A stretch of 64,000 nt of DNA from an uncultured Planctomycetales bacterium (GTDB taxonomy: Bacteria > Planctomycetota > Phycisphaerae > UBA1845 > PWPN01): positions 42,877 through 106,876 of the forward strand of contig CAZUAI010000006.1 of NCBI GenBank assembly GCA_964617875.1. The letters run 5' to 3'. The notes below the pieces were generated by a model. The model had not been told where the DNA came from and searched no databases. It saw nothing but the letters and a program-made list of their open reading frames with translations. Positions 3,587-55,331 of this stretch are shown one piece after another; position 1 is the stretch's first letter; each line of letters starts with the position of its first letter. The translations under genes were made by a program, and so were the position numbers.

Positions 3587-3598
3587 GGATCACCGGCC

Positions 3599-7839: not shown

Positions 7840-7916
7840 GACACCGCAGCCAGTCCACGACAAGCCTGCTCAACGTCGCCGCAATCACGGCCGCTCCGGG
7901 GGCTTGTCCGTCCCCG

Positions 7917-9633: not shown

Positions 9634-10344
9634 TCAGTCCATTCTCGCCCGTTGAAGCATCCGGGCCAGGTCCTCCCGAATCGGGGCCTCCACCGGCAAC
9701 GCACCGATGGCCTCCAGGGCGGGGGTCCGGTCGTATTCCGCCCGCCGGCTCTGAACCGCGCCGTCCTCCCACAGCGCATACGGCGCCCGCGCATCACCAT
9801 CCAGCGGCTGACCGAGCGAGCCGGGATTGACGATCTGCAGGGTTCCGTGGCGGCGGATCAGCGGGAGGTGCGTGTGGCCCGCCACGAGTAGGTCGGCCAG
9901 AACCCTGCCGGCGACGTCGTCGAGGATCGCATCGCATCCCTGGGGGGTCAGGCGGTAGTCGTACAGAGGGTCGATGGGCGTCGCATGCGTCACGGCGAAC
10001 GGAACGCCGCCGATTTCGCATCGCAGGCTCAGCGGAAGCCGGCCCAGCCACGCCAGGTCGTCCGGGCCCAGCTGCGCGCGGGTCCAGTCCCGCATGGCCA
10101 GGGCCAGGGGCTGCTTGGCCGGGCTGGCCTTGGGATCGGCCAGGAAGGCGACGGCATGGTCATGGTTGCCGCGCACGGCGATCGCCTCGTGCTGCCGAAG
10201 CCACGCCACCGCAGCCCCGGGGGCCGGACCGTAGTTCACCGTGTCGCCGGCGCAGATGACGTGGTCGAACCGCCCGGCGTCGCGTTCCACGGCGGCGAGG
10301 GCCCAGGGGTTGGCATGGATATCAGAAAGCATCAGAATCCGCAT
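9634..10344 (-). CDS. metallophosphoesterase (calcineurin-like, YfcE-type)
   Basis: [12 protein letters not shown]...GDTVNYGP...GNHD...GHTH motifs. Start is uncertain; the ORF extends to 10413, and 10344 is the first Met of the phosphoesterase fold. The stop lies 1 nt from the ZnR/HEAT ATG. Confidence 0.7.
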
Positions 10345-10536
10345 CGCCCAAACCATCTCCGAACCCGTGACCCATGGCGTCATCGTCGCCGTCGGCCCCC
10401 GGCCGGGACGCATCGCGTCCGCAGTATATCAAGGGGGACCGGGCGGCTGGGCATACCCGTACACGAACCCGGCCGGTTTTCGCTTCCGGTGGGGTTGCTT
10501 GCTGCCGCGCTCAGTCGGTGCGGACCCCCACCCAGG

Positions 10537-10603
10537 ACAGCGGGTAGGAGTCATCAGGCTCCCCGACGGGGAACCAATTCACGGCGGACTCCATCGCCCG
10601 CCG
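10537..10603 (-). ncRNA. fluoride riboswitch (crcB RNA motif), copy 1
   Basis: Minus-strand RNA GGGCGAUGGAGUCCGCCGUGAAUUGGUUCCCCGUCGGGGAGCCUGAUGACUCCUACCC matches the GGCGAUGGAGUyCGCC...CUGAUGAyUCCUrC consensus, with an inserted hairpin. It is one of three near-identical copies in the window. Confidence 0.8.
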
Positions 10604-10604
10604 G

Positions 10605-10633
10605 ATCTTAGCGTGAACGCTGTGGGGCCGCAA
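10605..10633 (-). promoter_or_regulatory. sigma70-like promoter for riboswitch copy 1 (-35 TTGCGG, 17-nt spacer, -10 TAAGAT)
   Basis: Minus strand reads CCTTGCGGccccacagcgttcacgcTAAGATccggcGGGCGAUGG. The same TTGCxx-17-TAxxAT architecture precedes copies 2 and 3. Confidence 0.5.
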
Positions 10634-10855
10634 GGACGCCTTCAGGGCGAGACGGGGCGCCGCGAAGGCCGAGCGGACGCCCGCCTTCGGTTGCCGGGCA
10701 GGCTTGACTTTGGACGCGCCCGGCGTACCGTGCCCGGTTTGCCGAGGCCGGGCGGTTGTGCGGCGCGTGATGATCTGCACGCCCCGGTTCGATGGAGCCT
10801 GCTTGCGGAACGAGACGACAGCCCCGAGTCGTACTGATCCCGGGATCCTCGCGCC

Positions 10856-13483
10856 ATGCCGATTCTGCCCAGCATCATACTGCCCAAGAACCTGGTGGCC
10901 GCCCTGAAACGTCACTCGTCGGACATCCGTGTTGCGCCGCTTCTGCTGGAAACGGCCTCCGTTGCGGCGCCTCTGGCTCTTGACAAGCTGGGGACAACAG
11001 CGAACGGGCTAAGCGAAGAAGCGGCTCAGGCGCGCCTGGAAGAGCACGGTCCGAATGTCGTTGCGCAGGAGCATCGGCACGGCAAGCTCGTCCTCCTGGG
11101 CAAGGCACTGATCAATCCCCTGGTGATCCTGCTGCTCATTCTGGCCGCGGTGTCGTTCCTCACCGGCGATAACCGCGCGGGAACCGTCATGTCGTTGATG
11201 GTCGTCCTCGGCGTGGTGCTGCGATTCGTTCAGGAATCGCGGGCCGATACCGCCGCGGCCAGACTGAAGTCCATGATCAGCGTAACCGCAACGGTCGTCC
11301 GCGAGGGGCGGACGCGAGAGATTCCGCTGGCCGATCTGGTGCCGGGCGATGTGGTCAGGCTTGCCGCCGGGGACATGATCCCGGCCGATCTTCGGCTCAT
11401 TTCCGCCAAGGATCTGTTTATCATACAGGCAAGCCTGACCGGCGAGTCGCTTCCCATTGAGAAGTTCGAGGTGACGGAATCGAACGGAAAACCAGCTCTT
11501 GAACTCCGGAATCTTTGCTTCCTGGGCACCAGTGTGGAGAGCGGAACGGCCACCGGGGTAGTCGTGGCCACCGGCTTGCAGACCTACCTGGGAACCATGG
11601 CCAGAGCCTTGGCCGGCGAGCAGGCACAAACCAGCTTCGACAAGGGGGTCAGTCGATTCACGTGGCTCATGATCCGCTTCATCGCCGTGATGGTGCCGCT
11701 GGTGTTTGTTATCAACGGCCTCACCAAGCATGACTGGCACGAAGCATTCTTCTTTGCGGTGGCGGTCGCGGTAGGCATGACGCCCGAGATGCTGCCGATG
11801 ATCGTGACCGTCTGCCTGTCGAAGGGCGCTCTGGCCATGTCCCGTCGCAAGGTCATCGTCAAGCGGCTCAACTCCATCCAGAATCTTGGTGCGATGGACG
11901 TGCTCTGCACCGACAAGACCGGCACGCTCACCATGGACCACGTGATTCTGGAGAAACATTGCGACGTCTTTCGGCGGGAGGATGATGGCGTCCTGATCCT
12001 GGCGTATCTCAACAGCCACTTCCAGACCGGCCTCAAGAATGTGCTGGACCGAGCCATCCTGGACCATCGGGAAGTCCACGACATGGTCTCCATCGCTGAC
12101 CACCTGAAAGTGGACGAGATCCCGTTCGATTTCTCGCGCAAGCTGATGTCCGTCGTCGTGCAGTTGCCGGAAGGAGGCCGTCGGCTCATCTGCAAGGGCG
12201 CGCCCGAAGTCGTCTTCCAGAGATGCAGCCAGTTTGAGGTTAAGGACCGGACGTACCCCATGCGGCAGGTCTACATTGACGATCTTCGCGAAGAGTACGA
12301 CGAACTCAGCGCCGATGGCTTCCGTGTGCTGGCCATTGCTCACAAGGATCTGGAGCCGAAGGCCGCCTATTCCCGAGAGGATGAGTACGACCTGACGTTG
12401 AATGGCTACGTGGCCTTTCTTGATCCTCCGAAGGATTCCGCCGGGCCCGCGATCGAGGCGCTTGGCAAGCACGGCGTCGCCGTCAAGGTTCTCACGGGAG
12501 ACAACGATCTGGTCAGCCGAAAGATCTGTCATGAGGTCGGCATCCCGAGCGAGGAGGTATTGCTTGGCCCGCAAGTCGAGGCCATGTCCGATGCCGAGCT
12601 GGCGCATGCCGCGGAGCACACGTCCCTGTTTGCCCGCCTTTCTCCGGCCCACAAACAGCGGATTATCCGTGCGCTGCAGGGGAACGGACACGTGGTCGGT
12701 TTTCTGGGCGACGGAATCAATGACTCGCCCGCCCTCCGCACCGCCGATGTGGGAATCTCCGTCGATACCGCCGTCGATATCGCCAAGGAAGCCGCCGACG
12801 CCATCCTGCTCGAAAAGAGCCTCATGGTGCTGGAGGAAGGCGTCCTCGAAGGACGCAAGGTCTTCGCCAACATCCTCAAGTACATCCGCATGGGAGCCAG
12901 CTCGAACTTCGGCAACATGTTCAGCGTGCTGGGGGCGAGCGTCTTTCTGCCGTTCGTGCCAATGGCCCCGATCCAGATCCTTACCAATAACCTGCTGTAT
13001 GACTTCTCGCAGGTTCCCATTCCGACGGACAACGTGGACCCCGAACAGATTGCCAAGCCCCGACCATGGTCGATGAATGAGATTACTCGGTTCATCCTCT
13101 TCATTGGCCCGTGCAGTTCGATTTTCGATTACACGACCTATTTCATCATGCTTTACGTCTTCCGTTGCTGGAGCCCCGACCGTGCGTCGTTGTTCCAAAC
13201 CGGCTGGTTCGTGGAATCCCTTATGACGCAGACGCTCATCATTCACATCATCCGGACCAACCGGATCCCGTTCCTGCAGAGCCGCGCCAGCCTGCCTCTC
13301 TCGATTACTACGCTGTTGATCATGGGTATCGGGATGTGGCTGCCGTTTTCACCTGTTGCATCTTCACTGGGCTTTACGCCACTGCCCGGTCTGTACTGGC
13401 CGCTGCTCTTCCTGACGTTGCTCTGCTACGGTTTGCTCACGCAGGCCGCCAAGACCTGGCTTCTGCGTAAGGCGTGGATCTGA
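10856..13483 (+). CDS. mgtA: magnesium-translocating P-type ATPase
   Basis: 875 aa with DKTGTLT, TGDN and GDGINDSPAL motifs and the typical MgtA N-terminus. Confidence 0.9.
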   Translation: MPILPSIILPKNLVAALKRHSSDIRVAPLLLETASVAAPLALDKLGTTANGLSEEAAQARLEEHGPNVVAQEHRHGKLVLLGKALINPLVILLLILAAVSFLTGDNRAGTVMSLMVVLGVVLRFVQESRADTAAARLKSMISVTATVVREGRTREIPLADLVPGDVVRLAAGDMIPADLRLISAKDLFIIQASLTGESLPIEKFEVTESNGKPALELRNLCFLGTSVESGTATGVVVATGLQTYLGTMARALAGEQAQTSFDKGVSRFTWLMIRFIAVMVPLVFVINGLTKHDWHEAFFFAVAVAVGMTPEMLPMIVTVCLSKGALAMSRRKVIVKRLNSIQNLGAMDVLCTDKTGTLTMDHVILEKHCDVFRREDDGVLILAYLNSHFQTGLKNVLDRAILDHREVHDMVSIADHLKVDEIPFDFSRKLMSVVVQLPEGGRRLICKGAPEVVFQRCSQFEVKDRTYPMRQVYIDDLREEYDELSADGFRVLAIAHKDLEPKAAYSREDEYDLTLNGYVAFLDPPKDSAGPAIEALGKHGVAVKVLTGDNDLVSRKICHEVGIPSEEVLLGPQVEAMSDAELAHAAEHTSLFARLSPAHKQRIIRALQGNGHVVGFLGDGINDSPALRTADVGISVDTAVDIAKEAADAILLEKSLMVLEEGVLEGRKVFANILKYIRMGASSNFGNMFSVLGASVFLPFVPMAPIQILTNNLLYDFSQVPIPTDNVDPEQIAKPRPWSMNEITRFILFIGPCSSIFDYTTYFIMLYVFRCWSPDRASLFQTGWFVESLMTQTLIIHIIRTNRIPFLQSRASLPLSITTLLIMGIGMWLPFSPVASSLGFTPLPGLYWPLLFLTLLCYGLLTQAAKTWLLRKAWI

Positions 13484-13787
13484 AATGAAGCGGCCGGCGA
13501 TGAATGCCGTATGACCGCGAGCGGGGCGGCATCACCATAGTGTTGCGGATCCCGACCAGATCACATAGAATCGGGTTGGCGATGGGGTTCGCCAGCGTCC
13601 CGACCCGCCGTGGCTCGGACCAACCGCCTGCCCGACGACAGGCTGATAACCCCTGCTGAACTGCGTGCTACGTTCCGGCAGGGTATCAGCCGCTCAATCT
13701 CAACTCTGTCGAACGACGACGCAGCCAGAAGGATCGCTCCGGCCGTTCTGCTTCGCGCTCGGGACGGAGCCTTCGGAGAGCGAGCGG

Positions 13788-15902
13788 ATGAACGAACATC
13801 ATCAACGGTGTATCGCCACCACACTGCGTCATATCGACGGCGTGTTCGCCGAGATCGAGGGGATTCTGGCCGCCATCGGCACGGGTTCGCCGCTGTCCCA
13901 GTACGCCCTGGACCTGGAGCCGATGCAGCGTGGGGTCGTCGAGGACCACCTGCACCGGATTCGGGAGGAGATGGTGGAGGCGATGAAACGGCTCGGCATT
14001 CCGCTGGACGGGCGTCGGACCAGCGCCTGCTGGTCCATCCGCAATCGCCTGCTCGGGGCGTCGATCGCGATCGCCGAGATGGAGCCGCCTCATCTTCGGG
14101 GGTACGGGGCACTGGATGCGCACGACAAGGCCGAGATCACGCGGGTCTGTGCGGAAATGGAACGGCTGATCGGCCGGGTCGATTCGTATCTGGCCCGCGT
14201 GCACGGCGGCGACCTGGCGCAACGAATCGCGCATCTGGAAGGTACGCCGGTGGATCGCGACTTGCTCACCACCCTGGAGCAGATCATCGGCAGGCACCAT
14301 CTGATCGAGCTGCGGCCCGCGCTCGACGTGATCCTCCATCGCCTGGAATCACCCCAGTTCGAGATCGCCTTTTTCGGTCGCGTCAGCTCCGGGAAATCCT
14401 CGCTGCTCAACCACATCCTCGGCGAAAGCGTCCTGCCCGTGGGCATTACCCCGGTGACCGCGGTGCCGACCCGGCTGCGACGCGGGGAGCGGCCGGAGAT
14501 GGTGGTTCACTTCGAGATCTCGTCGCCCGCCCGCCTGCCCATCGATCAGGTCGCCGAATTCGTGACGGAAGAAGGCAATCCGCGAAACCGTCGCCGGGTG
14601 AAGTGGGTTGAGGTGACGGTCTCCACGGCGCAGTGCTCCGAGGGCGTCGTGTTCGTGGACACTCCCGGCGTCGGATCGCTGGCCACCGTCGGCGCGGCCC
14701 AGACCATGGCGTACCTGCCGCGATGCGATCTCGGAGTCCTGTTGCTCGACGCCGGTTCGACCCTGCACCAGGAAGACCTCCGGATCCTGCAGGGTTTCGA
14801 GGAAGCGGCCATTCCGGCGATGGTCCTGCTCAGCAAGTGCGACCTGCTCCGCGCGGATGACCGGCAACGCATGATTCACTACGTCGAACAGCAGGTTCAC
14901 GAGGCCTTGGGGCTTTCGATCGTCGTGGCGCCGGTGAGTACCGTCGGCCCGGATGCGCATCTGGCCCACGAATGGTTCGAGGCGCATGTCCGTCCGATCA
15001 TGCGGAGGCACCGGGAGCTGACGGCCGCTTCGATTCGGCGAAAGGTCGGAGCGCTCCAGGAAACGCTTATCGCGACGTTGAGCAGTATGCTCCGCCGGAG
15101 AAGCGGCCGCTCCGCACCCGTAGCGCGTGACAGCGCCGAGGCGGCCCGGCTTCTGGAGGAGGCCGCGACGCGCATCGCCCGGTTCACGGAATGGGCCGCG
15201 GATTTCGATGCCCGCCGGACTTCGGAGGATGTGGCGCGGCTGATCGAAGACGCCGCCGTGCAGATGGTGCCGGGGCGGGGCGGCGGCCAGACCCCGCCGG
15301 TCGGTCTTCGCGACGTTCTGCTGACGCGGCTGGCGACCGAGGCGTCGTCGTTCCGGGACGGCGTCATCGGGTTGCAGGCCGACCTGACGAACACGTTGAT
15401 TCAGCTGGGCGAAAAGGTCGGCAGCATCGGAGGCCCTGAGGCCCGGAGGCTGGAGATGTCCCTGACCCCGCTTCCGCCGGCCCGCGAGGAGAATCTGGCC
15501 GCGATTCCCGACATTCGTCCGTCGAAGTTGCTCATGTCGTGGCGATGGCTTGCGCGGGCAAGGCTGCGTGCGGGCCTGCGTCGTCACTGCCGTTGGCCGA
15601 TCGAGACGGCGCTTGGCGATCATCGTCGCGAGTTGCGAACGTGGTTGAAAACCAACCTGGACCGCCTCGTGGAGGCCTACGAAACCCATGCCGGTGTGTA
15701 CCGGGAGGAACTGCGCCGCGCCACCGAGGCGTCGGGAGACGGCGGACGCGCCGAAGATTCCTCACTGGAAGAGGATCTGGACAGGTTGCAACGGCTCGCG
15801 GGACGGTTCCGCGAGCCGCAAAGCCCGTCCACCGCGGGCGAGCCGGCAGAGTCGGCCCCGACCGGACAGGGCGACGGGACGGTTCCGGTGCAGGCCTGTT
15901 GA
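13788..15902 (+). CDS. dynamin-like GTPase (DLP-C) with ~190-aa helical N-terminal extension
   Basis: P-loop GRVSSGKSSLLN, G3 DTPGVGS, G4 SKCD. cGGAGAG lies 7 nt before ATG 13788. The ORF is open from 13665. Confidence 0.7.
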   Translation: MNEHHQRCIATTLRHIDGVFAEIEGILAAIGTGSPLSQYALDLEPMQRGVVEDHLHRIREEMVEAMKRLGIPLDGRRTSACWSIRNRLLGASIAIAEMEPPHLRGYGALDAHDKAEITRVCAEMERLIGRVDSYLARVHGGDLAQRIAHLEGTPVDRDLLTTLEQIIGRHHLIELRPALDVILHRLESPQFEIAFFGRVSSGKSSLLNHILGESVLPVGITPVTAVPTRLRRGERPEMVVHFEISSPARLPIDQVAEFVTEEGNPRNRRRVKWVEVTVSTAQCSEGVVFVDTPGVGSLATVGAAQTMAYLPRCDLGVLLLDAGSTLHQEDLRILQGFEEAAIPAMVLLSKCDLLRADDRQRMIHYVEQQVHEALGLSIVVAPVSTVGPDAHLAHEWFEAHVRPIMRRHRELTAASIRRKVGALQETLIATLSSMLRRRSGRSAPVARDSAEAARLLEEAATRIARFTEWAADFDARRTSEDVARLIEDAAVQMVPGRGGGQTPPVGLRDVLLTRLATEASSFRDGVIGLQADLTNTLIQLGEKVGSIGGPEARRLEMSLTPLPPAREENLAAIPDIRPSKLLMSWRWLARARLRAGLRRHCRWPIETALGDHRRELRTWLKTNLDRLVEAYETHAGVYREELRRATEASGDGGRAEDSSLEEDLDRLQRLAGRFREPQSPSTAGEPAESAPTGQGDGTVPVQAC

Positions 15903-15914
15903 ATCGGCAGATCG

Positions 15915-17705
15915 TCAACCGGGCAGAAAGGCTGCCTCCGGGCGCCAGGGGAAACACAGACTCCGTTGGCCGACAAGCTGCGTCAATGCGCGTCGATGGG
16001 CCTCGGTCTCGTCGCGGTTTTCGAGGCTGCGCCGCAGGGCGTCGTGCTTTATCGCGAAGCTCTGCATGTCCTCGGCCAGCGCGCCGAGGTGTCGTGCGGC
16101 TTCCCGCAGCAGGAACCGGCGTGTTTCGCCGTCCGGCACCAAGACGATGAGAGGTGCCAGATGCCGCAGGCAGACGCCGGAAGACCGGGCATAAGCCTCG
16201 CGGCCTCCTGCATCGGCCAACAGGGTCGCCAGCCGCTGCGTGCCGTCGCGCTCGTGGTCCGCCAGCAGCCGGCAGACACGGCAGGCGGCCTGCCGGCCGG
16301 TGAGTTCGTCGAACGCGGCCTCCGGCCCGTTCTCGTTTGCCGCGAAAGCCGACAGGGCGGTCGTCCGTTTCTCCAGCAACGCGAAGTAGCCCACGCTCAG
16401 GCCCCGGGGCGAGGAGATGCCGGCGAGCTGCCAGGTGTGCAACGGGCAGAAGCCGCCCTCTTCGGCGAAGGACTGCTGAGCGGCTTCATCGGTCGCGAGA
16501 GCGTGCTGCCATCGTCGGAGGAAATCGAAGGCCGCTTCGGTCAGGTGGTTGCAGACGGGGCAGGTTCCCGCACGGAGCGCGGCCACGATCTCCGATTCTT
16601 CGATGGGTTCGGCCGGTTTCGTCCGCGGCGTCGGCGATGAACACGGCGGACCTCCCCGCGCCGCGGCCGGAGGCGTCGGCGTCGCGTCAACCTGACCCGC
16701 GAGAATCCCCTCGCGCAGCCGTTGAATGGCGGTTCGCCGCTCGACGGCTTCCGGGTGCTGCTGGCCTGCGATAAGTCCCTCGGCACGATCCAGGATCGCG
16801 GCCAGGAACGTCGTGGTCCGCTGGTCGGTCAGGAAATCCGCCAGCGCCGCCTCCAGGGCCGGAAGCCCGCTCTGTGCCAATCCGTGTGCGTCCCGCGCGG
16901 CTCGGGCCGCCAGCGCCGCCCGCGACGACAGGGGAAACAGGGGCGGCCGCGCCGCGCCCATCCGACGGGAGAGATTGTCGCCGATGAACCGCAGGGCAGC
17001 CTCCCGCTCCGCGTTCGCCAGCAGGTCCATCTTGTTGACGACGAAGAAGACCTTGCGGACATGCGCGCGGAGGCGGTCCAGGAACTCCAGTTCCGTCGCG
17101 GCCAGCGGACCGTCGGCGCTGGTCACGAACAGAACCGCATCGCACTGGGGGACGAAGGCATACGTCGTTGCGGTGTTCGCTTCGATGGCCGAGCCGATGC
17201 CGGGCGTATCCACGAACTCCAATCCACGCCGCAGGAAGGGCGACGGGAACTCCACGTATACCGCCTTGATTCGCTTCCGGTTGGCCGGATTGCCCGTCTC
17301 CGTCACGTACTCGGGCAGCGCCGAAATCGGGGCTTCGTCATCGAACGACCGGTTCTGACGGGAAATGACCAGCCGTTCCTCCGGACCGAACCGCAGGATG
17401 GTAATGGCGGACGTGAGCGGCAGGATGCCCGTCGGCAGAAGCTCCCGGCCGACGATGGCGTTCATGAGCGAACTCTTGCCGCGTTTGAACTGGCCCACAA
17501 CGGCCAGGGTGAAGCGGTCTTCGGCCAGCTTGACCATCAATTCATGGCAGGCGGCGACCCGGTCATCCCCGCCGTGCCGGCCGAGCCAATGGTCCAGGGC
17601 GCGAACCTGCCGTGCCACCGCCTGCCTGGCCCGCACGTAGGCCCTCAGACGCGACGAATCGGACTCGAGCGGGGACACCGCCGGACTCGTGGGCGACGGC
17701 ATCAT
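15915..17705 (-). CDS. dynamin-like GTPase (DLP-B) with Cys-rich C-terminal domain
   Basis: GQFKRGKSSLMN, DTPGIGS, NKMD. The C-terminus carries CPVC...CPLH...CRVC...CLRH. Its ATG overlaps the DLP-A stop (ATGA). Confidence 0.8.
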   Translation of the reverse strand: MMPSPTSPAVSPLESDSSRLRAYVRARQAVARQVRALDHWLGRHGGDDRVAACHELMVKLAEDRFTLAVVGQFKRGKSSLMNAIVGRELLPTGILPLTSAITILRFGPEERLVISRQNRSFDDEAPISALPEYVTETGNPANRKRIKAVYVEFPSPFLRRGLEFVDTPGIGSAIEANTATTYAFVPQCDAVLFVTSADGPLAATELEFLDRLRAHVRKVFFVVNKMDLLANAEREAALRFIGDNLSRRMGAARPPLFPLSSRAALAARAARDAHGLAQSGLPALEAALADFLTDQRTTTFLAAILDRAEGLIAGQQHPEAVERRTAIQRLREGILAGQVDATPTPPAAARGGPPCSSPTPRTKPAEPIEESEIVAALRAGTCPVCNHLTEAAFDFLRRWQHALATDEAAQQSFAEEGGFCPLHTWQLAGISSPRGLSVGYFALLEKRTTALSAFAANENGPEAAFDELTGRQAACRVCRLLADHERDGTQRLATLLADAGGREAYARSSGVCLRHLAPLIVLVPDGETRRFLLREAARHLGALAEDMQSFAIKHDALRRSLENRDETEAHRRALTQLVGQRSLCFPWRPEAAFLPG

Positions 17706-19555
17706 CGCTGATCCTGTTCTCGGGCGGCCGTTGTCGCAAGACGCTCCTTGAGCCCCCGCAGGCCGGCGACCGCCGCCTCGAGCCGCGCGATTTCCGGGGC
17801 AACCGTCGCCGAGTCTTCCGTGCGACGTCGTCGAGCGGCGCCAAGGGCCCGGCGAGTCGCTTCAATCGTCTGCCGAAGGCTGTCTTCCAGGGCGTCACGG
17901 AAGTCCTGGATGCTTGTCCTGAGATTCTCCAGGGTACTCCATCGAAGATCTCCGATGTTGCGAGTCACGAGGTACTCCACCTGGTCCGCGAGTCGCCGCC
18001 GAATGCGGGAATGCCGCAAGCGCCGCGGAAGCACTCTGTCGATCCAGTCCGTGGGAATCGAGCCGGGTCCCTGAATCGCCCACTTGTGAACGCGCCAGCA
18101 GGGCTGTTCCACCTTCGCCAGGGCGATCTCGCGGTGCTGCGGCTCATACGGAACGTCGAAGACCTTCGCAATGGAGGCGTGAACCGCGGCGACCAGTTCG
18201 GCCGCCCGGCGCTGATGGGGCCGCAGGGCCTCGTGCAGTTCGCGCTCGCAAAGCTGATGGGCGGCACCGAACTCCCGCTCGAAAAAACCGGGGATGGCCG
18301 CGGCAATGGCCTCGCGGGCGGTCTCCTCCGACCACCGGTTCCCGTCCCGAATCTCGCATTCGCGGAGGACTTTCGTGAAGAACTCGATGCTTCCGGGCAG
18401 CATCGCATCGGCGCGCATCTTGACGGCTTCCGCCAGACGCTGTTCGTCCCTGGCAAGGCGGTCGAGGGCCACGATGCGCCGTTCCTCGATTTCGGTCAGG
18501 CTGTTCTCGAAGCGACCGATGCGGTCGTCGAGGTCGGCCAGCGGCATCTGCAGGGACCGCAGAGTCAGTTCCAGGCGATGCTGGACATCGGCGAGAATGT
18601 CCCCCGCCTGGCGGGCCACCGCGCGGCTGAGCACGTCTTTCTTCTCGGTGAGCAGGAAGCTGACGATCTGCTCTTCGATCGCCGCCACGCCGCTCCGTTC
18701 CCAGGCGGCGTCATCCTGCCCCTGGCGAGCCGCCAGGCCCTGGCGGGCCGAGGCGCAGAAGATCGGCGGCGGCGAGGTGAACCCGACGTGCTCGCAGAGC
18801 GCCCGCTGGAGAAACCGTACGGCCTCGTCCCGCTCGGCCGCGTCGAGGTAATCCACCTTGTTCAGGATGAAGAACAGGCGGGCCAGTTTGCGGCGCGCGA
18901 GCTTGAGAAACTCCACCTCGACCTCGGTGATCGGCGGATCCGCGGACACCACGAACATCGCCGCATCGCACTGCGGGAGAAAGTTGACGGTCGCCTCGGT
19001 GTTGTGGCGAAAGGTCGAACCGATGCCGGGCGTATCGATCAGCGAGAGGCCCCGACGCAGCACCGGCGCGGGATACGCGGCTTCGATCAACCGGACCCCC
19101 AGGTGGTTGCGCGGGTTCGCGCTTTCGGCGACAAAACGCGCGAGGAAACCCGCCAGGGCCGCGGCGTCCGGCCCGAGGAGCCGCTCTTCCGGCTTCCCGT
19201 TTTCGAATACCACCCGGGCCGCCGGCTGCTCGCCGCCGTGCAGAAACGTCGGGATGGACGTGACCGGCACAACGGCGGCAGGCAGGACGGGGGCTCCCAG
19301 CAACGCATTGATCAACGTGCTCTTGCCGCGTTTGAACTGGCCGAGCACGGCCAGATGACAGCGTTCCTCCCGCAGACGTTCGTGCAGAGCGAGAATGCGA
19401 TGCCGGTCGGCCCCGAATTCCTCGCCCATCGCCCCCACCTGACCGGCGGCTTCCTGCAGGAGGGTTGGCAGTTGGACGGACTCCGCGACATGCCGGGCCG
19501 TCGTCTCCGGCCGGTTGTCCGAATCCGCGTCGGCATGGAGGACGAAATCAGTCAT
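17702..19555 (-). CDS. dynamin-like GTPase (DLP-A)
   Basis: GQFKRGKSTLINALLG, DTPGIGS, NKVD, and a long coiled-coil stalk. Overlaps the TPR gene's stop by 8 nt. Confidence 0.8.
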   Translation of the reverse strand: MTDFVLHADADSDNRPETTARHVAESVQLPTLLQEAAGQVGAMGEEFGADRHRILALHERLREERCHLAVLGQFKRGKSTLINALLGAPVLPAAVVPVTSIPTFLHGGEQPAARVVFENGKPEERLLGPDAAALAGFLARFVAESANPRNHLGVRLIEAAYPAPVLRRGLSLIDTPGIGSTFRHNTEATVNFLPQCDAAMFVVSADPPITEVEVEFLKLARRKLARLFFILNKVDYLDAAERDEAVRFLQRALCEHVGFTSPPPIFCASARQGLAARQGQDDAAWERSGVAAIEEQIVSFLLTEKKDVLSRAVARQAGDILADVQHRLELTLRSLQMPLADLDDRIGRFENSLTEIEERRIVALDRLARDEQRLAEAVKMRADAMLPGSIEFFTKVLRECEIRDGNRWSEETAREAIAAAIPGFFEREFGAAHQLCERELHEALRPHQRRAAELVAAVHASIAKVFDVPYEPQHREIALAKVEQPCWRVHKWAIQGPGSIPTDWIDRVLPRRLRHSRIRRRLADQVEYLVTRNIGDLRWSTLENLRTSIQDFRDALEDSLRQTIEATRRALGAARRRRTEDSATVAPEIARLEAAVAGLRGLKERLATTAAREQDQR

Positions 19556-19976
19556 GGCACTCCGAATCTGTCGGGAAATCGGCGGGGACGGAATCCGCTT
19601 GCGTCATGCCGGCCGAATCTGCCTCCGGCTCAGGGGGCTCCTGCCCCGGCCAGAAGTGGCGCCACATGCGGCGAACTGTGGCATCGTCCCGGCGTTCGCG
19701 AAAGAGCTGGGCCAGCAGGGCGCGGGCTTCGTCCATGCGGTTCAGATGGGTCAACGCAACGGCCCAGTGAACCTTGAACGACGGCTCAAAGGGGTTTACG
19801 TATACGGCGCGTCGGAATTGGGACTCGGCCAGTTCGAAGGCCTCGCGCTGGAGGAAATAGCAACCCATATCGTCGCGGTCGTAGCCCAGATAGTGGCTGG
19901 GCCGCAGGACTTCCTCGCGGATGATCTGCGGGTCGCGAGTGCGGTGTCGCCTTTTCGGCTCGTCCGGGAGGCTCAT
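19548..19976 (-). CDS. small TPR-repeat protein
   Basis: MSLPDEPKRRHRTRDPQIIREEVLRPSHYLGYDRDDMGCYFLQREAFELAESQFRRAVYVNPFEPSFKVHWAVALTHLNRMDEARALLAQLF. The ORF is open to 20030; the start was chosen at the first Met after the terminator. Confidence 0.55.
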   Translation of the reverse strand: MSLPDEPKRRHRTRDPQIIREEVLRPSHYLGYDRDDMGCYFLQREAFELAESQFRRAVYVNPFEPSFKVHWAVALTHLNRMDEARALLAQLFRERRDDATVRRMWRHFWPGQEPPEPEADSAGMTQADSVPADFPTDSECHD

Positions 19977-20018
19977 GGTCCGCCATACCTCCGTGCCGCA
20001 GGCCGACGGCCTGCCAAC

Positions 20019-20058
20019 AGAAAACCCCACACAGGAATCGTCCTGGCGGGGTTCCCGT
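20019..20058 (-). terminator. intrinsic terminator forming the expression platform of fluoride riboswitch copy 2
   Basis: Minus-strand RNA CCCCGCCAGGACGAUUCCUGUGUGGGGUUUUCUG: GC stem plus U tract between the aptamer and the TPR start. Confidence 0.5.
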
Positions 20059-20085
20059 TACACGATGGCCCCTACCCAGGTCGAT

Positions 20086-20139
20086 TCGGGCAGGAGTCAT
20101 CAGGTCGGCAGGACCGCTTAACGGCGGACTCCATCGCCA
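20086..20139 (-). ncRNA. fluoride riboswitch (crcB RNA motif), copy 2
   Basis: UGGCGAUGGAGUCCGCCGUUAAGCGGUCCUGCCGACCUGAUGACUCCUGCCC, followed by a conserved CCUGCCCGaAUCGACCUGGGuAGG hairpin. Confidence 0.8.
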
Positions 20140-20144
20140 TAGAT

Positions 20145-20173
20145 ATTTTAGGCCCGGCGGGCGTCGTGTGCAA
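20145..20173 (-). promoter_or_regulatory. sigma70-like promoter for riboswitch copy 2 (-35 TTGCAC, 17 nt, -10 TAAAAT)
   Basis: Minus strand reads CCTTGCACacgacgcccgccgggccTAAAATatctaUGGCGAUGG. Confidence 0.55.
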
Positions 20174-20188
20174 GGGCCGTCTTTTGTC

Positions 20189-20539
20189 TCAGGCCTTTGC
20201 GCCCACGCCGTTCGCCCGGTACTTGATCACGCGGACTTTTTCCAGCGTGATGAGTCCTTCCACCACCATCTCATCGATGTAGGGCAGGAGCAGATTGACC
20301 TTCTCCTCGCTGTCCACGATCTCGATGATAAAGGGGAGGTCTTCCGACAGCCGCAGGATCTTCGTCGTGTGCAGCCGGCTGTGGGCGCCGAAGCCCATCG
20401 GGCCGCGAAGCACCGTCGCCCCGGCCAGATGAAGCTCGCGGGCCTTCATCACGATGGCCTCGTACAGCGGCTTGCCGTGCCACTTGTCGTTCTCGCCGAT
20501 GAAGATGCGCAGCAACTGCGCTTCGCCTTCCAGTTTCAT
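20189..20539 (-). CDS. DUF190 (PII-like) protein, common CrcB neighbour
   Basis: MKLEGEAQLLRIFIGENDKWHGKPLYEAIVMKARELHLAGATVLRGPMGFGAHSRLHTTKILRLSEDLPFIIEIVDSEEKV. Confidence 0.75.
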   Translation of the reverse strand: MKLEGEAQLLRIFIGENDKWHGKPLYEAIVMKARELHLAGATVLRGPMGFGAHSRLHTTKILRLSEDLPFIIEIVDSEEKVNLLLPYIDEMVVEGLITLEKVRVIKYRANGVGAKA

Positions 20540-20542
20540 TCA

Positions 20543-20956
20543 TCACCTCACCACCGTCACGGTGCACGGCGCGTAACTCAGGACCCGCTTGGAGACCGAA
20601 CCCAGCAGCCAGCGCTGGAACCGGCTCTTGCCTCGATGGCCCATCACGATCATGTCGGCCTGGCGCTCGGCGGCCTGATGGACGATCTGATCGGCCGGAT
20701 GGCCTACCACGACGGCCGTTTCGAGAGGAATCCCTGCCGCCTTCGCGGCCTCGCGAAAGACGACGAAGTCCTTCTCGAAGTGCTCCGTCGCCGCATCCAG
20801 CAGGGCGGGTGTCTCCACCGACGTGGGCGGTTCCGACGGCTGGGCTACCGACACGACGGTCACGCTGGCACCGAATGCCCTGGCCAGTTCCAGCGCGAAC
20901 TGGAATGCCCGTTTCGCCGACTCGGATCCGTCATGAGCTGCAAGAATGGTTTTCAT
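20543..20956 (-). CDS. universal stress protein (UspA family)
   Basis: 137 aa, MKTILAAHDGSESAKRAF...ADMIVMGHRGKSRFQRWLLGSVSKRVLSYAPCTVTVV. Confidence 0.85.
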   Translation of the reverse strand: MKTILAAHDGSESAKRAFQFALELARAFGASVTVVSVAQPSEPPTSVETPALLDAATEHFEKDFVVFREAAKAAGIPLETAVVVGHPADQIVHQAAERQADMIVMGHRGKSRFQRWLLGSVSKRVLSYAPCTVTVVR

Positions 20957-20965
20957 GGTTACCTC

Positions 20966-22219
20966 TCACGATTCAGAAGGGACGGGCTCACCATCCGCCG
21001 TCGCGGTTGCCACAGCCGCCTGGCCGCCGGCCGATGCCGTGCCCTGTCCTGTGACTCCAGTGCGTTTCGACAGCAGGTCCCGCGGAATGAAGAAGGCATT
21101 GGCGATCAGCGTCGGGATCACGGCGCTGGCCACCACCGCCGCAACGAGATACGAGTACTGGCTCTGCGTGATGACATTGTGCGTCAGCCCGAAGAGCGCG
21201 GAGATCGTCCCGAACGTCAGCCCCGTGGACATGAGCAGCGTGGTGTACACGGCCTGGCGGTACTCGTAGCGAAACGCCCTGGTGGTGGGGTACACGCCCA
21301 CGCACTTGCTCACCACCTTGGCGACCAGCAGGATCAGGAAGGTCGCCGGGGCCGCAAGCAGGGCCGGAACCGAAACGAAGGAACCGGCCCGGATGAAGTA
21401 GAACGGCGTCAGCATTCCGAACGTCAGCGTGCGCAGCCGGCGAACCAGGACGTGATCCTTGCCCACGGTGCCAGCGAGGACCATGCCGATCATGTACGCG
21501 GGCAAGACCGCCTCGCTGTCGGCCCACGCCGCCAGGGCTCCCATGCTGAACAGCAGCAGCAGCAGGTACTTCGCCTCCAGTTCCGAGGGGCGGTTGCCGT
21601 ATCGTTTGAAGAACCACGGCGTCAGAAAGGGGATGACGGCGAAGACCACGACGCTCGATCCGACGAACACGCCCGTGCGCATCGTGAACGGCGAGAAGAT
21701 CAGACCGAGAGCAATCACCGTGCCGAGGTCGTTGATGAAGCAGGCGGCCAAAACGGCCTTGCCGAAATCCGTCTTGTTGAAGCCCAGTTCGAGCATGACC
21801 GCATAGACGACGGCGACCGAGGTTGTGGACAGGGCCACCCCCGCCAGCCAGCTCGCCATCGGGGTCCAGTGCAGCACATAGTACGCCACGGCCGCGCACC
21901 CCAGGAACGGCGCGAAAAAAGCGACCAGGCCGACGACGGTGGCCTCCTTCCACTTGGCGCGGAACACCGTCGGGTCCAACTCGGCCCCGGCCAGAAACGT
22001 CAGGACGATGGCACCCGTCCCCGACAGGAACTTGATCCAGGGTTCGTGTGCTCCCAGCGCCGCCGTTCCGGCGAGAGCACCGATGATCAGTTGGGCGACC
22101 GTGCCCACCACGATCTCGGAGAGGGCCGTCGCCACGCGAAGCCAGATCGAAAGGAGCGTGGCGAGCAGGGCGAGTCCCAGCCACAACGCCGCCGTAAGCC
22201 AGACGTCGGTCATGTGCAT
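20966..22219 (-). CDS. cation:proton (Na+/H+) antiporter, CPA family
   Basis: 417 aa, 12-13 TM, typical NhaP/Kef-type membrane domain. Confidence 0.8.
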   Translation of the reverse strand: MHMTDVWLTAALWLGLALLATLLSIWLRVATALSEIVVGTVAQLIIGALAGTAALGAHEPWIKFLSGTGAIVLTFLAGAELDPTVFRAKWKEATVVGLVAFFAPFLGCAAVAYYVLHWTPMASWLAGVALSTTSVAVVYAVMLELGFNKTDFGKAVLAACFINDLGTVIALGLIFSPFTMRTGVFVGSSVVVFAVIPFLTPWFFKRYGNRPSELEAKYLLLLLFSMGALAAWADSEAVLPAYMIGMVLAGTVGKDHVLVRRLRTLTFGMLTPFYFIRAGSFVSVPALLAAPATFLILLVAKVVSKCVGVYPTTRAFRYEYRQAVYTTLLMSTGLTFGTISALFGLTHNVITQSQYSYLVAAVVASAVIPTLIANAFFIPRDLLSKRTGVTGQGTASAGGQAAVATATADGEPVPSES

Positions 22220-22289
22220 CGACCTCCTGCCGCAGCCTTCCCCTCCGCCTGACCGCCCTCGACGGCCTTCCGGTCCGCATTCGTGGCCG

Positions 22290-22676
22290 TCACATGATTC
22301 CGAACCATCTCTCTGCCGCCCGGTAGCCCACCAGGACGGCGCAGAAGCCCAGGGTCACGCTCAGCAACAGGTTCATAATCGCCCGAAGGCCCTGCCCGTC
22401 GTTGGCCATCGCGAAGGTCTCCCACCCGAACGAGGAAAACGTCGTGAAGCCGCCCAGCACGCCGACGGTCAGACCGATGCGATAATCCTGGCGAATCAGA
22501 ATCGGACCGCTGAAGACGTAGTTCAGGAAACCAATCACCAGACATCCGATAATATTGACCGTCAGGGTCCCCACCGGAAAGGAACCATTGGACAGCCTCT
22601 GGCCCCAGCCCTGAACCAGGTAACGAAGCACGGAACCGAAGCCGCCGCCCATGGCCACCATCACGATCTTCACCAT
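22290..22676 (-). CDS. crcB: fluoride ion channel CrcB/Fluc
   Basis: MVKIVMVAMGGGFGSVLRYLV...TLTVNIIGCLVIGFL...GLTVGVLGGFTTFSSFGWET. GAGGAAG lies 8 nt upstream of ATG 22676. The ORF is open to 22706. Confidence 0.9.
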   Translation of the reverse strand: MVKIVMVAMGGGFGSVLRYLVQGWGQRLSNGSFPVGTLTVNIIGCLVIGFLNYVFSGPILIRQDYRIGLTVGVLGGFTTFSSFGWETFAMANDGQGLRAIMNLLLSVTLGFCAVLVGYRAAERWFGIM

Positions 22677-22706
22677 CCAACGCTTCCTCGCATGCCGGTC
22701 CGCCAA

Positions 22707-22760
22707 ACAAGAAACCCTACGCAGGCATTCGGCCCGGCAGGGTTCATCTACAAGGTCTCC
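22707..22760 (-). terminator. candidate terminator-type expression platform of riboswitch copy 3
   Basis: Minus-strand RNA CCCUGCCGGGCCGAAUGCCUGCGUAGGGUUUCUUGUUU: stem with one G-U, then a U-rich tract, placed between the aptamer and the crcB SD. Confidence 0.45.
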
Positions 22761-22782
22761 GTGGCGCGGACCCTGCCCAGGT

Positions 22783-22842
22783 CGATGCGGGCAGGAGTCA
22801 TCAGGTCAGCGCGACCGGTTAAGGGCGGACTCCATCGCCGCC
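22783..22842 (-). ncRNA. fluoride riboswitch (crcB RNA motif), copy 3, canonical position upstream of crcB
   Basis: CGGCGAUGGAGUCCGCCCUUAACCGGUCGCGCUGACCUGAUGACUCCUGCCC. Confidence 0.85.
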
Positions 22843-22845
22843 GCT

Positions 22846-22874
22846 ATACTATCCTCTGGCACGACAAGTTGCAA
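22846..22874 (-). promoter_or_regulatory. sigma70-like promoter for riboswitch copy 3/crcB operon (-35 TTGCAA, 17 nt, -10 TAGTAT)
   Basis: Minus strand reads CTTGCAActtgtcgtgccagaggaTAGTATagcggcGGCGAUGG. Confidence 0.55.
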
Positions 22875-45054: not shown

Positions 45055-45159
45055 TCGGCGTCGCGCCGGCGGCTCGCGGCGCGAGACGGAACAGGGTATA
45101 GTCGATCGCAGGCGGTCACGAAGCAACGTGACGGCGTTTCATCCTGGCGAGGTGCTCTG

Positions 45160-55313: not shown

Positions 55314-55331
55314 GAAAGGGAGGTTGCCGTC

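Follow-up and report, generated by a model that had tools for sequence, protein, structure and literature searches.

The window, the 64,000-nt stretch of DNA that was analysed (G+C 67%; source genome probably from the Phycisphaerae or other Planctomycetota), carries several fluoride riboswitches close together, and the question is what they control and how. The best explanation, in which we have good confidence, is that window positions 395-22874 form a fluoride-response island of roughly 22 kb and about 16 genes, driven by four fluoride riboswitches, each at or adjoining its own probable transcription start. The riboswitch class and most of the cargo are already known; the new point, on the basis of full-text searches, is the link to dynamin-like proteins (DLPs), whose genes the first-pass annotation did not recognise as notable cargo.

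Four aptamers were found with the Rfam model RF01734 (gathering score 34 bits; E-values from 3e-11 to 6.5e-7). RS3 (22785..22848, minus strand; E 3e-11) scored 51.1 bits, and 60.7 bits with our own covariance model; RS2 (20084..20147, minus strand) scored 49.5 bits and RS4 (13569..13662, plus strand) 44.3 bits. RS1 (10538..10607, minus strand), which has a longer P2, scored 37.9 bits, and 47.4 bits with our own model. The three minus-strand sites had been named as fluoride riboswitches by the first-pass annotation; all exceed the gathering score and contain the quoted strings GGCGAUGGAGUCCGCC...CUGAUGACUCCU(G/A)CCC, and the count of three missed RS4. The description "near-identical" holds for RS2 and RS3 only (89% across the aptamer); RS1 shares 77-79% identity with these two and RS4 about 50%. 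The copies are related cassettes, not near-identical ones. RS4 contains an extra ~25-nt hairpin between P1 and the AACCGCC linker, as seen by alignment with DLP-C-associated aptamers, and in the pseudoknot it carries G-C in place of the A-U of the other copies. The pseudoknotted fold, on which the assignment had been staked beforehand, is kept: an alignment of 140 aptamers, among them the four from the window, retains P1, P2 and the pseudoknot, with compensatory changes. The five pseudoknot pairs are 99.9% paired in this alignment, the search model of which contained no pseudoknot, and compensatory changes occur at three of the five. Contrary to what had been claimed, the aptamers are not unusually dense compared with related loci. 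At least two aptamers within about 14-22 kb were found in 34/80 DLP-A and 38/80 DLP-C loci, and eight in one related locus; such density is normal for fluoride islands of this kind.

Each aptamer is preceded by a promoter-like element, located by pattern search, of two hexamers 17 nt apart: TTGCAA and TAGTAT for RS3 (22846..22874, minus strand; it ends 6 nt before P1), TTGCAC and TAAAAT for RS2 (20145..20173, minus strand), TTGCGG and TAGAAT for RS4 (13543..13571, plus strand), and TTGCGG and TAAGAT for RS1 (10605..10633, minus strand). The distance from the -10-like hexamer to the first G of P1 is exactly 6 nt in all four copies, and TAnnAT-N6-GGCGAUGG is common to all. A search of the window for TTGC-N19-TAnnAT-N6-GGCGATGG gave 4 matches, and 100 shuffles gave none; for TTGC-N19-TAnnAT by itself, 5 matches were counted where 0.19 would be expected. 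The common promoter-like architecture proposed earlier for three sites was borne out by these searches, and RS4 has the same spacing. The RS2 element begins 15 nt past the DUF190 stop codon, so RS3 transcripts can run into RS2.

Domain searches also confirmed the three operons that had been assigned. The RS3 unit begins with crcB (Fluc fluoride channel; 22290..22676, minus strand; Pfam CRCB; NCBIfam TIGR00494, 101 bits vs cutoff 80), immediately 3' of the aptamer. The likely crcB start is ATG 22676, with GAGGAA ahead of it (22689-22684); position 22706, where the ORF begins by mechanical calling, falls within the terminator U tract. The following minus-strand genes encode a cation/proton antiporter (20966..22219; Pfam Na_H_Exchanger), relatives of which lie beside aptamers in 42/160 related loci, a universal stress protein (USP; 20543..20956; Pfam Usp, E 8e-37) and a DUF190 protein (COG1993; 20189..20539; Pfam DUF190, E 1.5e-41), which recurs in related loci, often in three copies. 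The RS1 unit encodes a YfcE-family metallophosphoesterase (9634..10413, minus strand; Pfam Metallophos_2; NCBIfam TIGR00040, 63 bits vs cutoff 56) and a 571-aa zinc-ribbon (CPRC-x12-CPRC), HEAT and enolase fusion (7917..9632, minus strand; TIGR01060, 662 bits), the true start of which is ATG 9632, 1 nt past the phosphoesterase stop codon. Enolase is a classic fluoride-inhibited enzyme, and the phosphoesterase-enolase pair is found again in related loci. The RS1 unit possibly continues into co-directional, Pfam-assigned genes at 395..7863 (minus strand) for a MOT1-like permease (7863-6565), an MFS protein (about 6530-5333), an outer-membrane factor (5355-3775) and an AcrB-type RND pump (3586-395); in one related locus (L089) a 71% identical AcrB relative stands directly behind an aptamer. 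An MgtA-type Mg2+-importing P-type ATPase (10856..13483, plus strand; Pfam; NCBIfam TIGR01524, 1150 bits vs cutoff 611) is located between RS1 and RS4, divergent from RS1 and with no aptamer of its own upstream. The CrcB exporter, antiporter, USP, DUF190 protein and extra enolase with phosphoesterase are known fluoride-defence cargo.

The cargo of RS2 and RS4 is different: three soluble DLPs, GTPases of the IniA/BDLP type, and a small TPR-like protein. The latter (142 aa; 19548..19976, minus strand; gene call from ATG 19976) is encoded by the first gene of the RS2 unit, shows weak Pfam TPR matches and has relatives in 7 related loci. It is followed by DLP-A (617 aa; 17702..19555, minus strand), which has Pfam Dynamin_N and PDB profile matches to 2J68, 5OWV and 6J72; its AF2 model (pLDDT 78) has IniA as the best Foldseek match (E 2e-21), with BDLP also matched. 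DLP-B (596 aa; 15915..17705, minus strand), the start of which overlaps the DLP-A stop by 4 nt, combines a dynamin-like G domain with a Cys-rich DUF6062-like C-terminal half. The RS4 unit consists of DLP-C (704 aa; 13788..15902, plus strand), which has a conserved 190-aa N-terminal extension and is convergent with DLP-B, the stop codons being 12 nt apart; both DLP-B and DLP-C were assigned by Pfam and PDB profile matches. The G1, G3 and G4 motifs are invariant in the DLP-A and DLP-C families. No transmembrane or strongly hydrophobic segment was predicted in DLP-A, DLP-B or DLP-C, and we infer their membrane association from the fold alone.

To place this arrangement, relatives of DLP-A (best-scoring 80 of 587 loci, from about 15 phyla including methanogenic archaea) and DLP-C (best-scoring 80 of 134 loci, metagenomic) were compared. 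Fluoride aptamers are present in 72/80 of these DLP-A loci. In 59/80 an aptamer lies on the same strand no more than 400 nt upstream (median 109 nt), and in 7 more at 401-1000 nt. Four of the eight loci without an aptamer belong to the Chloroflexota (Dehalococcoidia, Chloroflexia), and one of the eight ends 80 nt upstream of the gene. Nine upstream DLP-A aptamers, including those of two archaeal loci and one cultured isolate, were confirmed by Rfam's own model. Among the best 80 DLP-C loci, 67 have aptamers, and 65 of the 72 informative ones have a same-strand upstream aptamer; one cluster of distances, near 1320 nt, is accounted for by the gene order riboswitch, antiporter, DLP-C. Overall, about 80-90% of the sampled bacterial and archaeal loci have the DLP-A or DLP-C relative directly behind a fluoride aptamer, and the cultured Neomoorella glycerini has the same aptamer-dynamin arrangement. 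Judging from these sequences, the dynamin-fluoride aptamer link is both widespread and ancestral rather than a local accident. Full-text literature searches for fluoride, riboswitch and dynamin together gave nothing, and none of the papers covered describes this pairing.

Folding was used to analyse the leaders downstream of the aptamers. In RS3 the pseudoknot 3' strand CUCCUGCCC pairs with GGGCAGG in an anti-antiterminator hairpin (22770..22797, minus strand; -18.5 kcal/mol), upstream of a terminator stem and UUUCUUGUUU tract (22705..22744, minus strand; -21.4 kcal/mol); the terminator 5' arm ACCCUGCC is able to pair with GGGCAGGGU as an antiterminator (-24.3 kcal/mol). RS2 has the corresponding hairpin of CUCCUGCCCG with UGGGUAGGGG (20069..20096, minus strand; -16.6 kcal/mol), the terminator AACCCCGCCAGGA...UCCUGUGUGGGGUU followed by UUUUCUGUU (20015..20053, minus strand; -25.4 kcal/mol), and the alternative antiterminator pairing of AUCGACCUGG-GGGG with CCCC-CCAGGACGAU (-21.8 kcal/mol). 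The 3' hairpin CCUGCCCG(c/a)AUCGACCUGGG(c/u)AGG that had been described as common to RS2 and RS3 is real by folding, as are their terminator-like platforms, which are bulged terminator stems with U tracts. The RS1 equivalent of this hairpin is CCUACCC/GGGUGGG, with one G-U pair. The RS1 platform (10461..10552, minus strand) comprises an anti-antiterminator (10552-10523; -20.4 kcal/mol), an antiterminator in which GGUGGGG can pair with CCCCACC (-27.1 kcal/mol) and a terminator-like stem (10496-10466; -13.1 kcal/mol) with the weak U tract CGUGU only. RS4 has a 16-bp sequestering hairpin of GGCUGAUAACCCCUGCUG with CGGCAGGGUAUCAGCC (13641..13692, plus strand; -29.4 kcal/mol), which overlaps the 3' strands of P2 and the pseudoknot.

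In this class, the pseudoknot that the P1 loop (GGAGU) forms with the 3' tail (ACUCC) is locked by fluoride, which three Mg2+ ions hold in place. The folds suggest that RS1-3 are ON switches made from three competing hairpins. Without fluoride, the free 3' tail (CUCCUrCCC) would pair with the middle segment (GGGyrGGG) and leave the downstream terminator free to form (OFF). With fluoride, the tail would be held in the pseudoknot and the middle segment would pair with the terminator 5' arm, a near-repeat of the aptamer tail, giving read-through (ON). When leader prefixes were folded with a free or a blocked aptamer, this exchange between tail:middle and middle:terminator-arm pairing was seen. 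The minimum-energy fold of the full leader with the aptamer blocked retains the RS2 and RS3 terminators, so the model needs kinetic, co-transcriptional control. The single RS4 hairpin would compete directly with P2 and the pseudoknot. The same three-part layout is found upstream of the DLP-A relative in N. glycerini, where the U7 terminator is canonical; the closest relative (L083) has the tail:middle hairpin and the terminator, with a middle:terminator-arm pairing of only about 5 bp by hand pairing.

It is possible, if somewhat doubtful, that at RS1 and RS4, and perhaps at all four, fluoride works through Rho access, RNA stability or translation initiation and not through intrinsic termination. 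No U tract follows the RS4 hairpin, which ends 96 nt before the DLP-C start codon (13788), and only CGUGU follows the RS1 stem; for this high-GC lineage, a simple consensus scan listed terminators at none of the four sites. However, the stems of RS2 and RS3 are long, GC-rich and succeeded by U tracts, the same layout includes canonical U6-U7 terminators in the L083 and N. glycerini relatives, and the folds contain no RBS-sequestering pairing that depends on the aptamer state. That the sites are chance matches, or a dispersed repeat that senses nothing, is refuted by the RF01734 E-values, the shuffles, none of which matched the promoter-plus-aptamer pattern, and the compensatory pseudoknot changes, and has a negligible probability; only the high G+C content of the window speaks for it, and the crcB gene next to RS3 also speaks against it.

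Hitch-hiking, in which the dynamin genes merely adjoin fluoride genes without aptamer regulation, would suit a modular island of highly variable gene order. We consider it very improbable: a same-strand aptamer stands a median of about 110 nt upstream in 59/80 DLP-A and 36/72 DLP-C loci, the DLP is the first gene past it in most cases, and the N. glycerini terminator U tract abuts the DLP start codon. Our best guess for function under aptamer control is that the DLPs protect or remodel the cytoplasmic membrane under fluoride/HF stress, a role that would parallel that of the stress-induced DLPs IniA and DynA. They might instead be induced as replacement or decoy targets, like enolase. GDP-metal-fluoride complexes lock dynamin-family G-domain dimers; with GDP, MgF3-, AlF4- and BeF3- trap these domains as a transition-state dimer. 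Fluoride would then poison cellular GTPases, and additional or fluoride-tolerant DLPs would make up for this, or the trapped form would itself be the active one. Examples of such locked dimers among the structural matches listed are mitofusin "transition-like state" entries (5GOM, 9KFF) and an OPA1 GDP-AlFx assembly (8EEW). The G1, G3 and G4 motifs are invariant in both DLP families, and the rest of the regulon consists largely of fluoride-inhibited enzymes and back-ups, here enolase and phosphoesterase and in Enterobacter ppaC, eno and gpmA (PMC5533749). Still, we regard this as unlikely, as these genomes have no known housekeeping DLP to be replaced, the DLP sequences contain nothing that identifies fluoride tolerance, and three different DLP families with TPR, ZnR-HEAT and DUF6062 partners speak for a dedicated machine and not for a spare part.

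The closest RF01734 (crcB motif) systems are the Bacillus cereus crcB and Thermotoga petrophila aptamers (Weinberg 2010, PMC2864571). The window aptamers share the conserved cores of the class, GAUGG and CUGAUGA, together with P1, P2 and the pseudoknot (PMC2864571), and also the ON switch ahead of crcB and the overlap of the expression platform with the pseudoknot 3' strand. In those two systems the terminator overlaps the aptamer directly, whereas the RS1-3 platforms rely on three hairpins (tail:middle, middle:terminator arm, terminator) and RS4 has its extra hairpin between P1 and P2. Two window copies head dynamin-like GTPase genes, which are absent from the published riboswitch-associated genes examined. 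The Enterobacter cloacae FRM island GI3 is described as containing a fluoride riboswitch together with six genes, ppaC, uspA, eno, gpmA, crcB as well as orf5249 (PMC5533749). Like GI3, the window has a riboswitch-driven multi-gene fluoride-resistance island with crcB, USP and extra fluoride-inhibited enzymes including enolase; unlike GI3, it has four riboswitches, about 16 genes, three DLPs and a ZnR-HEAT-enolase fusion, and lacks ppaC and gpmA.

The DLPs resemble Campylobacter DLP1/DLP2 (5OWV), Nostoc BDLP (2J68) and B. subtilis DynA in combining a Dynamin_N G domain with a helical bundle. DLP-A and DLP-B are coupled in one operon as in paired bacterial DLPs, from which they differ in that DLP-B has the Cys-rich DUF6062 domain, a separate gene after the DLP-A relative in N. 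glycerini, in place of the usual helical stalk, and in that a hydrophobic paddle or transmembrane hairpin is not predicted in the window DLPs. IniA is induced by chemical envelope stress, namely cell-wall-acting drugs, via protein regulators. IniA, from the mycobacterial iniBAC operon (PDB 6J72/6J73), is the best structural match of the DLP-A model at about 20% sequence identity, and both are soluble and without transmembrane segments; unlike IniA, DLP-A would have fluoride as its inducer, read by RNA.

An Rfam scan of the entire window at gathering thresholds returned a single family, RF01734, four times. The four fluoride riboswitches were designated RS1 to RS4, and all of them exceed the curated gathering score of 34 bits: RS3 at 22848-22785 (minus strand, 51.1 bits), RS2 at 20147-20084 (minus strand, 49.5 bits), RS4 at 13569-13662 (plus strand, 44.3 bits) and RS1 at 10607-10538 (minus strand, 37.9 bits). 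The first-pass annotation had described three near-identical copies. Its three sites and the sequence strings quoted for them are present and pass the gathering score, but RS4 was overlooked, and 'near-identical' was too strong: aptamer identity is 89% between RS2 and RS3 only, 77-79% between RS1 and these two, and about 50% for RS4. RS3 lies 109 nt 5' of the crcB start codon (ATG 22676), and RS1, RS2 and RS4 head operons whose gene families recur beside aptamers in 160 related loci.

Pairing was counted on an alignment of 140 aptamers from the window and related loci. The matches were collected with our own covariance model, built from 66 aptamers with P1 and P2 only; the pseudoknot was absent from the model and was added to the structure only for counting. 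This model found seven loci that a regular-expression scan had overlooked. P1 was paired in 99.3% and P2 in 89.8% of cases and all eight pairs vary on both sides, values that are biased towards these helices since the alignment was fitted to them. The pseudoknot between the P1 loop (GGAGU) and the 3' tail (ACUCC) was 99.9% paired over its five pairs, with compensatory changes at three of them: G-C to A-U in 16 sequences and A-U to G-C in 12, RS4 (GGGGU/ACCCC) being among the latter. When the 3' partners were shifted by 1-3 columns, overall pairing fell to 37-60%. The pseudoknotted fold on which the first-pass annotation had staked its claim is thus kept, and the four elements are predicted fluoride riboswitches with a conserved fold. 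RS4 has an extra hairpin at 13595-13621, between P1 and the AACCGCC linker. Many aptamers associated with relatives of DLP-C, the dynamin-like GTPase gene under RS4, have an additional hairpin in the same interval that ranges from 3 to 11 bp and keeps its pairing although the sequences differ (among others L083 4306-4396, L084 5414-5506 and L097 5088-5171); it looks like an optional 'P1a' stem of one fluoride-aptamer sub-lineage.

A shared promoter-like architecture had also been reported, and it holds for all four copies. The pattern TTGC-N19-TAnnAT-N6-GGCGATGG matched four times in the window, once per aptamer, and never in 100 shuffles; its TTGC...TAnnAT half by itself matched five times in 64 kb, four of them at aptamers. 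The RS2 element begins 15 nt past the DUF190 stop codon, and it was the only one of these sites listed by a consensus promoter/terminator scan, which was superseded by the pattern statistics for promoters and by folding for the expression platforms. The fifth match (TTGCGT...TAGAAT, N17 spacing, 37656-37684, minus strand) stops 5 nt short of the mechanical start of a LysR-family regulator ORF (37650-36661) and may be a genuine promoter of this kind, perhaps one that gives a leaderless mRNA.

The RF01734 scores, the zero matches in shuffles and the covariation of the pseudoknot rule out both a dispersed repeat and chance motifs. Recent duplication of near-identical cassettes was rejected as well: RS2 and RS3, 89% identical in the aptamer, 72% in the platform and 66% in the promoter region, are the only close pair. 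RS4 clusters with those aptamers that accompany DLP-C relatives elsewhere, which suggests that every switch moves together with its gene.

In the platforms of RS1, RS2 and RS3, folding pairs the tail CUCCUrCCC (the 3' strand of the pseudoknot and the following four bases) with a middle segment, GGGyrGGG, for which a terminator arm competes. The tail:middle pairing was calculated at -16.6, -18.5 and -20.4 kcal/mol for RS2, RS3 and RS1, respectively, the middle:terminator-arm pairing with the aptamer blocked at -21.8, -24.3 and -27.1 kcal/mol, and the terminator stem at -25.4, -21.4 and -13.1 kcal/mol. RS2 and RS3 have a stem with a U tract and an alternative antiterminator when the aptamer is blocked; the RS1 stem has a weak U tract. 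The terminator-like platforms described for RS2 and RS3 were recovered by folding; the consensus scan, defeated by bulges in the stems and breaks in the U tracts, listed no terminator at any of the sites. In prefix (co-transcriptional) folds the middle segment swaps between both pairings and exposes the antiterminator. In full-length minimum-energy folds the RS2 and RS3 terminators persist with the aptamer blocked; purely thermodynamic switching was rejected on this result, and the switch must be kinetic. Kinetic switching is established for transcriptional fluoride riboswitches. RS4 has a single 16-bp hairpin (-29.4 kcal/mol) that shares sequence with P2 and with the pseudoknot strand and lacks a U tract behind it. 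The three-part layout of RS1, RS2 and RS3 also precedes the relative of DLP-A (the first dynamin-like gene under RS2) in Neomoorella glycerini, where the U7 tract of the terminator abuts the start codon. The leader in L083 has a tail:middle hairpin and a U-rich terminator; by hand pairing its middle:terminator-arm helix is weak, about 5 bp. We infer the platform mechanism from these predicted folds.

The genes were mapped by combining third-position GC, Pfam, NCBIfam and the public gene call. RS3 precedes crcB, a cation/H+ antiporter, a USP gene and DUF190. The crcB product scored 101.4 bits with TIGR00494 (cutoff 80.45) and 94.8 bits with Pfam CRCB, and is predicted at equivalog level to be a CrcB/Fluc fluoride channel for which ATG 22676 is the likely start. 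RS2 precedes genes for a 142-aa TPR-like protein, DLP-A (617 aa) and DLP-B (596 aa, a dynamin G domain joined to a Cys-rich DUF6062-like half). RS4 precedes DLP-C (704 aa). RS1 precedes a YfcE-family phosphoesterase gene and an enolase gene whose product carries a CPRC-x12-CPRC zinc ribbon and HEAT repeats at its N terminus (ZnR-HEAT module, 9632-9190, minus strand); the fusion starts at ATG 9632, 1 nt past the phosphoesterase stop codon, and four transporter genes follow the enolase in the same direction, reaching position 395. DLP-C (plus strand) and DLP-B (minus strand) are convergent, with stop codons 12 nt apart (15902-15915) and no space for terminators; transcripts that fluoride induces from RS4 and RS2 would run into one another at this junction or overlap there as antisense RNA.

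Between RS1 and RS4 lies a gene for an MgtA-type Mg2+-importing P-type ATPase (10856-13483, plus strand; TIGR01524, 1150 bits) without an aptamer of its own. Fluoride sequesters Mg2+ and the fluoride aptamer requires Mg2+, so the place of this gene in the island may be more than coincidence. Loci such as L059 and L151 also have P-type ATPase genes near their aptamers, though more distant ones (27-52% identity). Elsewhere the window carries ordinary chromosomal genes, among them those for glutamate synthase, MacAB-TolC and anthranilate synthase, and annotations assign the nearest protein relatives to Phycisphaerae, Planctomycetia and Thermoguttaceae. About 22 kb from the island, with no aptamer nearby, are genes for a PsiE-family protein and a USP with tandem domains (44533-46059, plus strand). 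At 54447-57284 (plus strand) lies a pair of genes, the first with a weak YqiJ_N (NfeD-like) hit and the second, encoding 650 aa, with a weak hit to SPFH/Band 7; this would be a membrane-microdomain pair unrelated to the island.

Dynamin_N (PF00350) was found above the gathering score in DLP-A, DLP-B and DLP-C, and an NCBIfam search returned no model naming the three proteins. The G1, G3 and G4 motifs are invariant in the alignments of DLP-A (GQFKRGKST, DTPG and NKxD) and DLP-C (GRVSSGKSS, DTPG and SKxD). Sequence comparison gave matches to Nostoc BDLP, Campylobacter DLP1/2, IniA and the mitofusins for each of the three. An AF2 model of DLP-A (pLDDT 78), the only one of the three modelled, predicts a G domain and a long helical bundle of the neck/trunk type (helices 305-466 and 511-615), with full-length Foldseek matches to IniA (E 2e-21) and BDLP (E 2e-19). 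A conserved Trp-rich loop (467-510, with P485, W487 and W492) is placed at the predicted tip of the bundle, a low-confidence region of the model. No transmembrane-grade hydrophobic segment was detected in any of the three. DLP-B has DUF6062 in place of the helical bundle: its C-terminal half (15915-16610, minus strand) is Cys-rich (CPVC...CPLH...CRVC...CLRH) and stands where dynamins usually have their stalk. N. glycerini encodes DUF6062 separately, in the gene directly after its DLP-A relative (L162 7817-8536), and a 785-aa DLP-A relative, P0065, bears a HEAT_2 domain.

DLP-A relatives number in thousands. An alignment of 24 relatives was used as query against one genome per GTDB species, and the best 80 of 587 loci were kept. 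These come from Planctomycetota, Thermodesulfobacteriota, Firmicutes, Nitrospirota, Acidobacteriota, Spirochaetota/Leptospira, Alphaproteobacteria, Thermotogae, Armatimonadota and others, and 11 of the 80 are Methanomicrobia archaea. Among these best 80, our covariance model found 136 aptamers in 72 loci; a same-strand aptamer lay within 400 nt upstream of the tblastn match in 59 (median 109 nt) and 401-1000 nt upstream in a further seven. The Rfam model confirmed DLP-upstream aptamers in eight loci, two of them archaeal, and an aptamer in the complete genome of cultured N. glycerini, where the order is aptamer, DLP-A, DUF6062 and the distance from aptamer to DLP gene is about 70 nt (L162; CP046244.1, near 3,206,950-3,207,020). 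Eight of the 80 loci lacked an aptamer; one of these breaks off 80 nt before the gene, and Chloroflexota account for four, all MAGs (L015, L032, L034 and L066; three Dehalococcoidia and one Chloroflexia), in which either the RNA was lost or replaced in the phylum or it diverged beyond the model.

For DLP-C, the best-scoring 80 of 134 metagenomic loci were fetched with the DLP-C alignment and held 118 aptamers in 67 loci. In the 72 informative loci the aptamer was upstream within 400 nt in 36, at 401-1500 nt in 22, mostly in the order riboswitch, antiporter, DLP-C, and farther in seven. DLP-B-like genes stood behind aptamers in several loci. Fluoride-riboswitch control of the three families, conserved across domains, is strongly supported by these computations. 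At least two aptamers were present in 34 of the 80 DLP-A loci and 38 of the 80 DLP-C loci, with a maximum of eight in one locus, so the window is typical and the density that the first-pass annotation called unusual is normal.

Recurrent neighbours of the aptamers in the related loci are genes for enolase, the antiporter, USP and DUF190 (the last often in triplicate), as well as the phosphoesterase-enolase pair. DUF190 is a single copy in the window (20189-20539); three tandem paralogues occur in many fluoride islands (L021 6889-7900, L112 4109-5150, L127 2946-4000, and L132, L138, L141, L156, L158 and L160). Of 160 loci, 16 have the ZnR-HEAT module, either on its own or as a fusion; it is often the first ORF behind an aptamer and precedes DLP-B-like, TPR, enolase or ATPase genes (for instance L025 3895-4251, L053 3908-4264, L085 693-1040 and 4267-4590, and L151 2765-3118). 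DUF6062-like sequences were found in 28 of 160. In L089, a metagenomic contig, an RND pump gene (2898-1, minus strand), 71% identical to the window's AcrB (395-3586, minus strand), stands directly behind an aptamer (3002-3087, minus strand); by analogy the AcrB-type pump at the far end of the window's island may be part of the fluoride response as well. Neither the MOT1-like permease nor the MFS gene had a tblastn match in the first 80 related loci, and the two are therefore not conserved island members.

The accepted fluoride response is export together with back-up copies of inhibited enzymes. A predicted membrane-remodelling GTPase that follows fluoride riboswitches at most of the loci sampled, bacterial and archaeal alike, points to membrane or envelope integrity as a further target of toxicity. 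To our knowledge, the physiological roles of bacterial dynamins are poorly defined, and we know of no inducing condition for most of them. It is conceivable, though we hold it rather improbable, that the three families of soluble GTPases make up an effector system dedicated to fluoride stress and conserved in lineages as far apart as Planctomycetota, Firmicutes and methanogenic archaea, whose small, recurrent partners would be the zinc-ribbon/HEAT protein, the TPR-like protein and DUF6062. The cellular role of the DLPs could be membrane protection, or they could be GTPases that fluoride traps. In the boldest version fluoride would act twice, inducing the DLP genes through the RNA and then, as GDP-MgF3- or GDP-AlF4-, locking DLP G-domain dimers in the assembled membrane-bound state. 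If an effector system of this kind exists, these would be the first prokaryotic dynamins whose chemical inducer is defined and can be supplied experimentally, and the predicted DLP phenotype would be fluoride tolerance. Since a riboswitch names its signal directly, DLP function can be tested with NaF in cultured carriers of the arrangement, such as N. glycerini (CP046244.1); a Leptospira biflexa-labelled MAG (L077) is a further lead. The ZnR-HEAT module, DUF6062 and the small TPR-like protein are three uncharacterised families that become candidate members of the fluoride regulon.

A literature search found no report joining fluoride, riboswitch and dynamin or dynamin-like; the 2012 Science gene tables (Baker et al.) lay outside its scope, and a prior listing there is possible. 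Searches for bacterial dynamin with fluoride gave only usages of PMSF, PVDF or AlFx and no link to fluoride stress, and dynamin-like protein with riboswitch gave nothing relevant. Neither Weinberg 2010 (PMC2864571) nor Sherlock & Breaker 2020 mentions dynamin or GTPase. Earlier work had already described this riboswitch class and its ON logic, together with much of the cargo (crcB, enolase, USP, antiporters) (PMC2864571, PMC7266159, PMC5533749, PMC9971707). The finding of the first-pass annotation is thus correct and, as originally stated, ordinary; the notable part is the added fourth switch and the cross-domain fluoride-riboswitch control of three DLP families. In N. glycerini two MutS_V-domain genes, with MFS, USP and Na/H exchanger genes, adjoin the riboswitch-DLP-DUF6062 unit (L162 8565-11599, minus strand). 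These MutS_V genes echo the unexplained mutS association noted in the first description of the crcB motif (PMC2864571).
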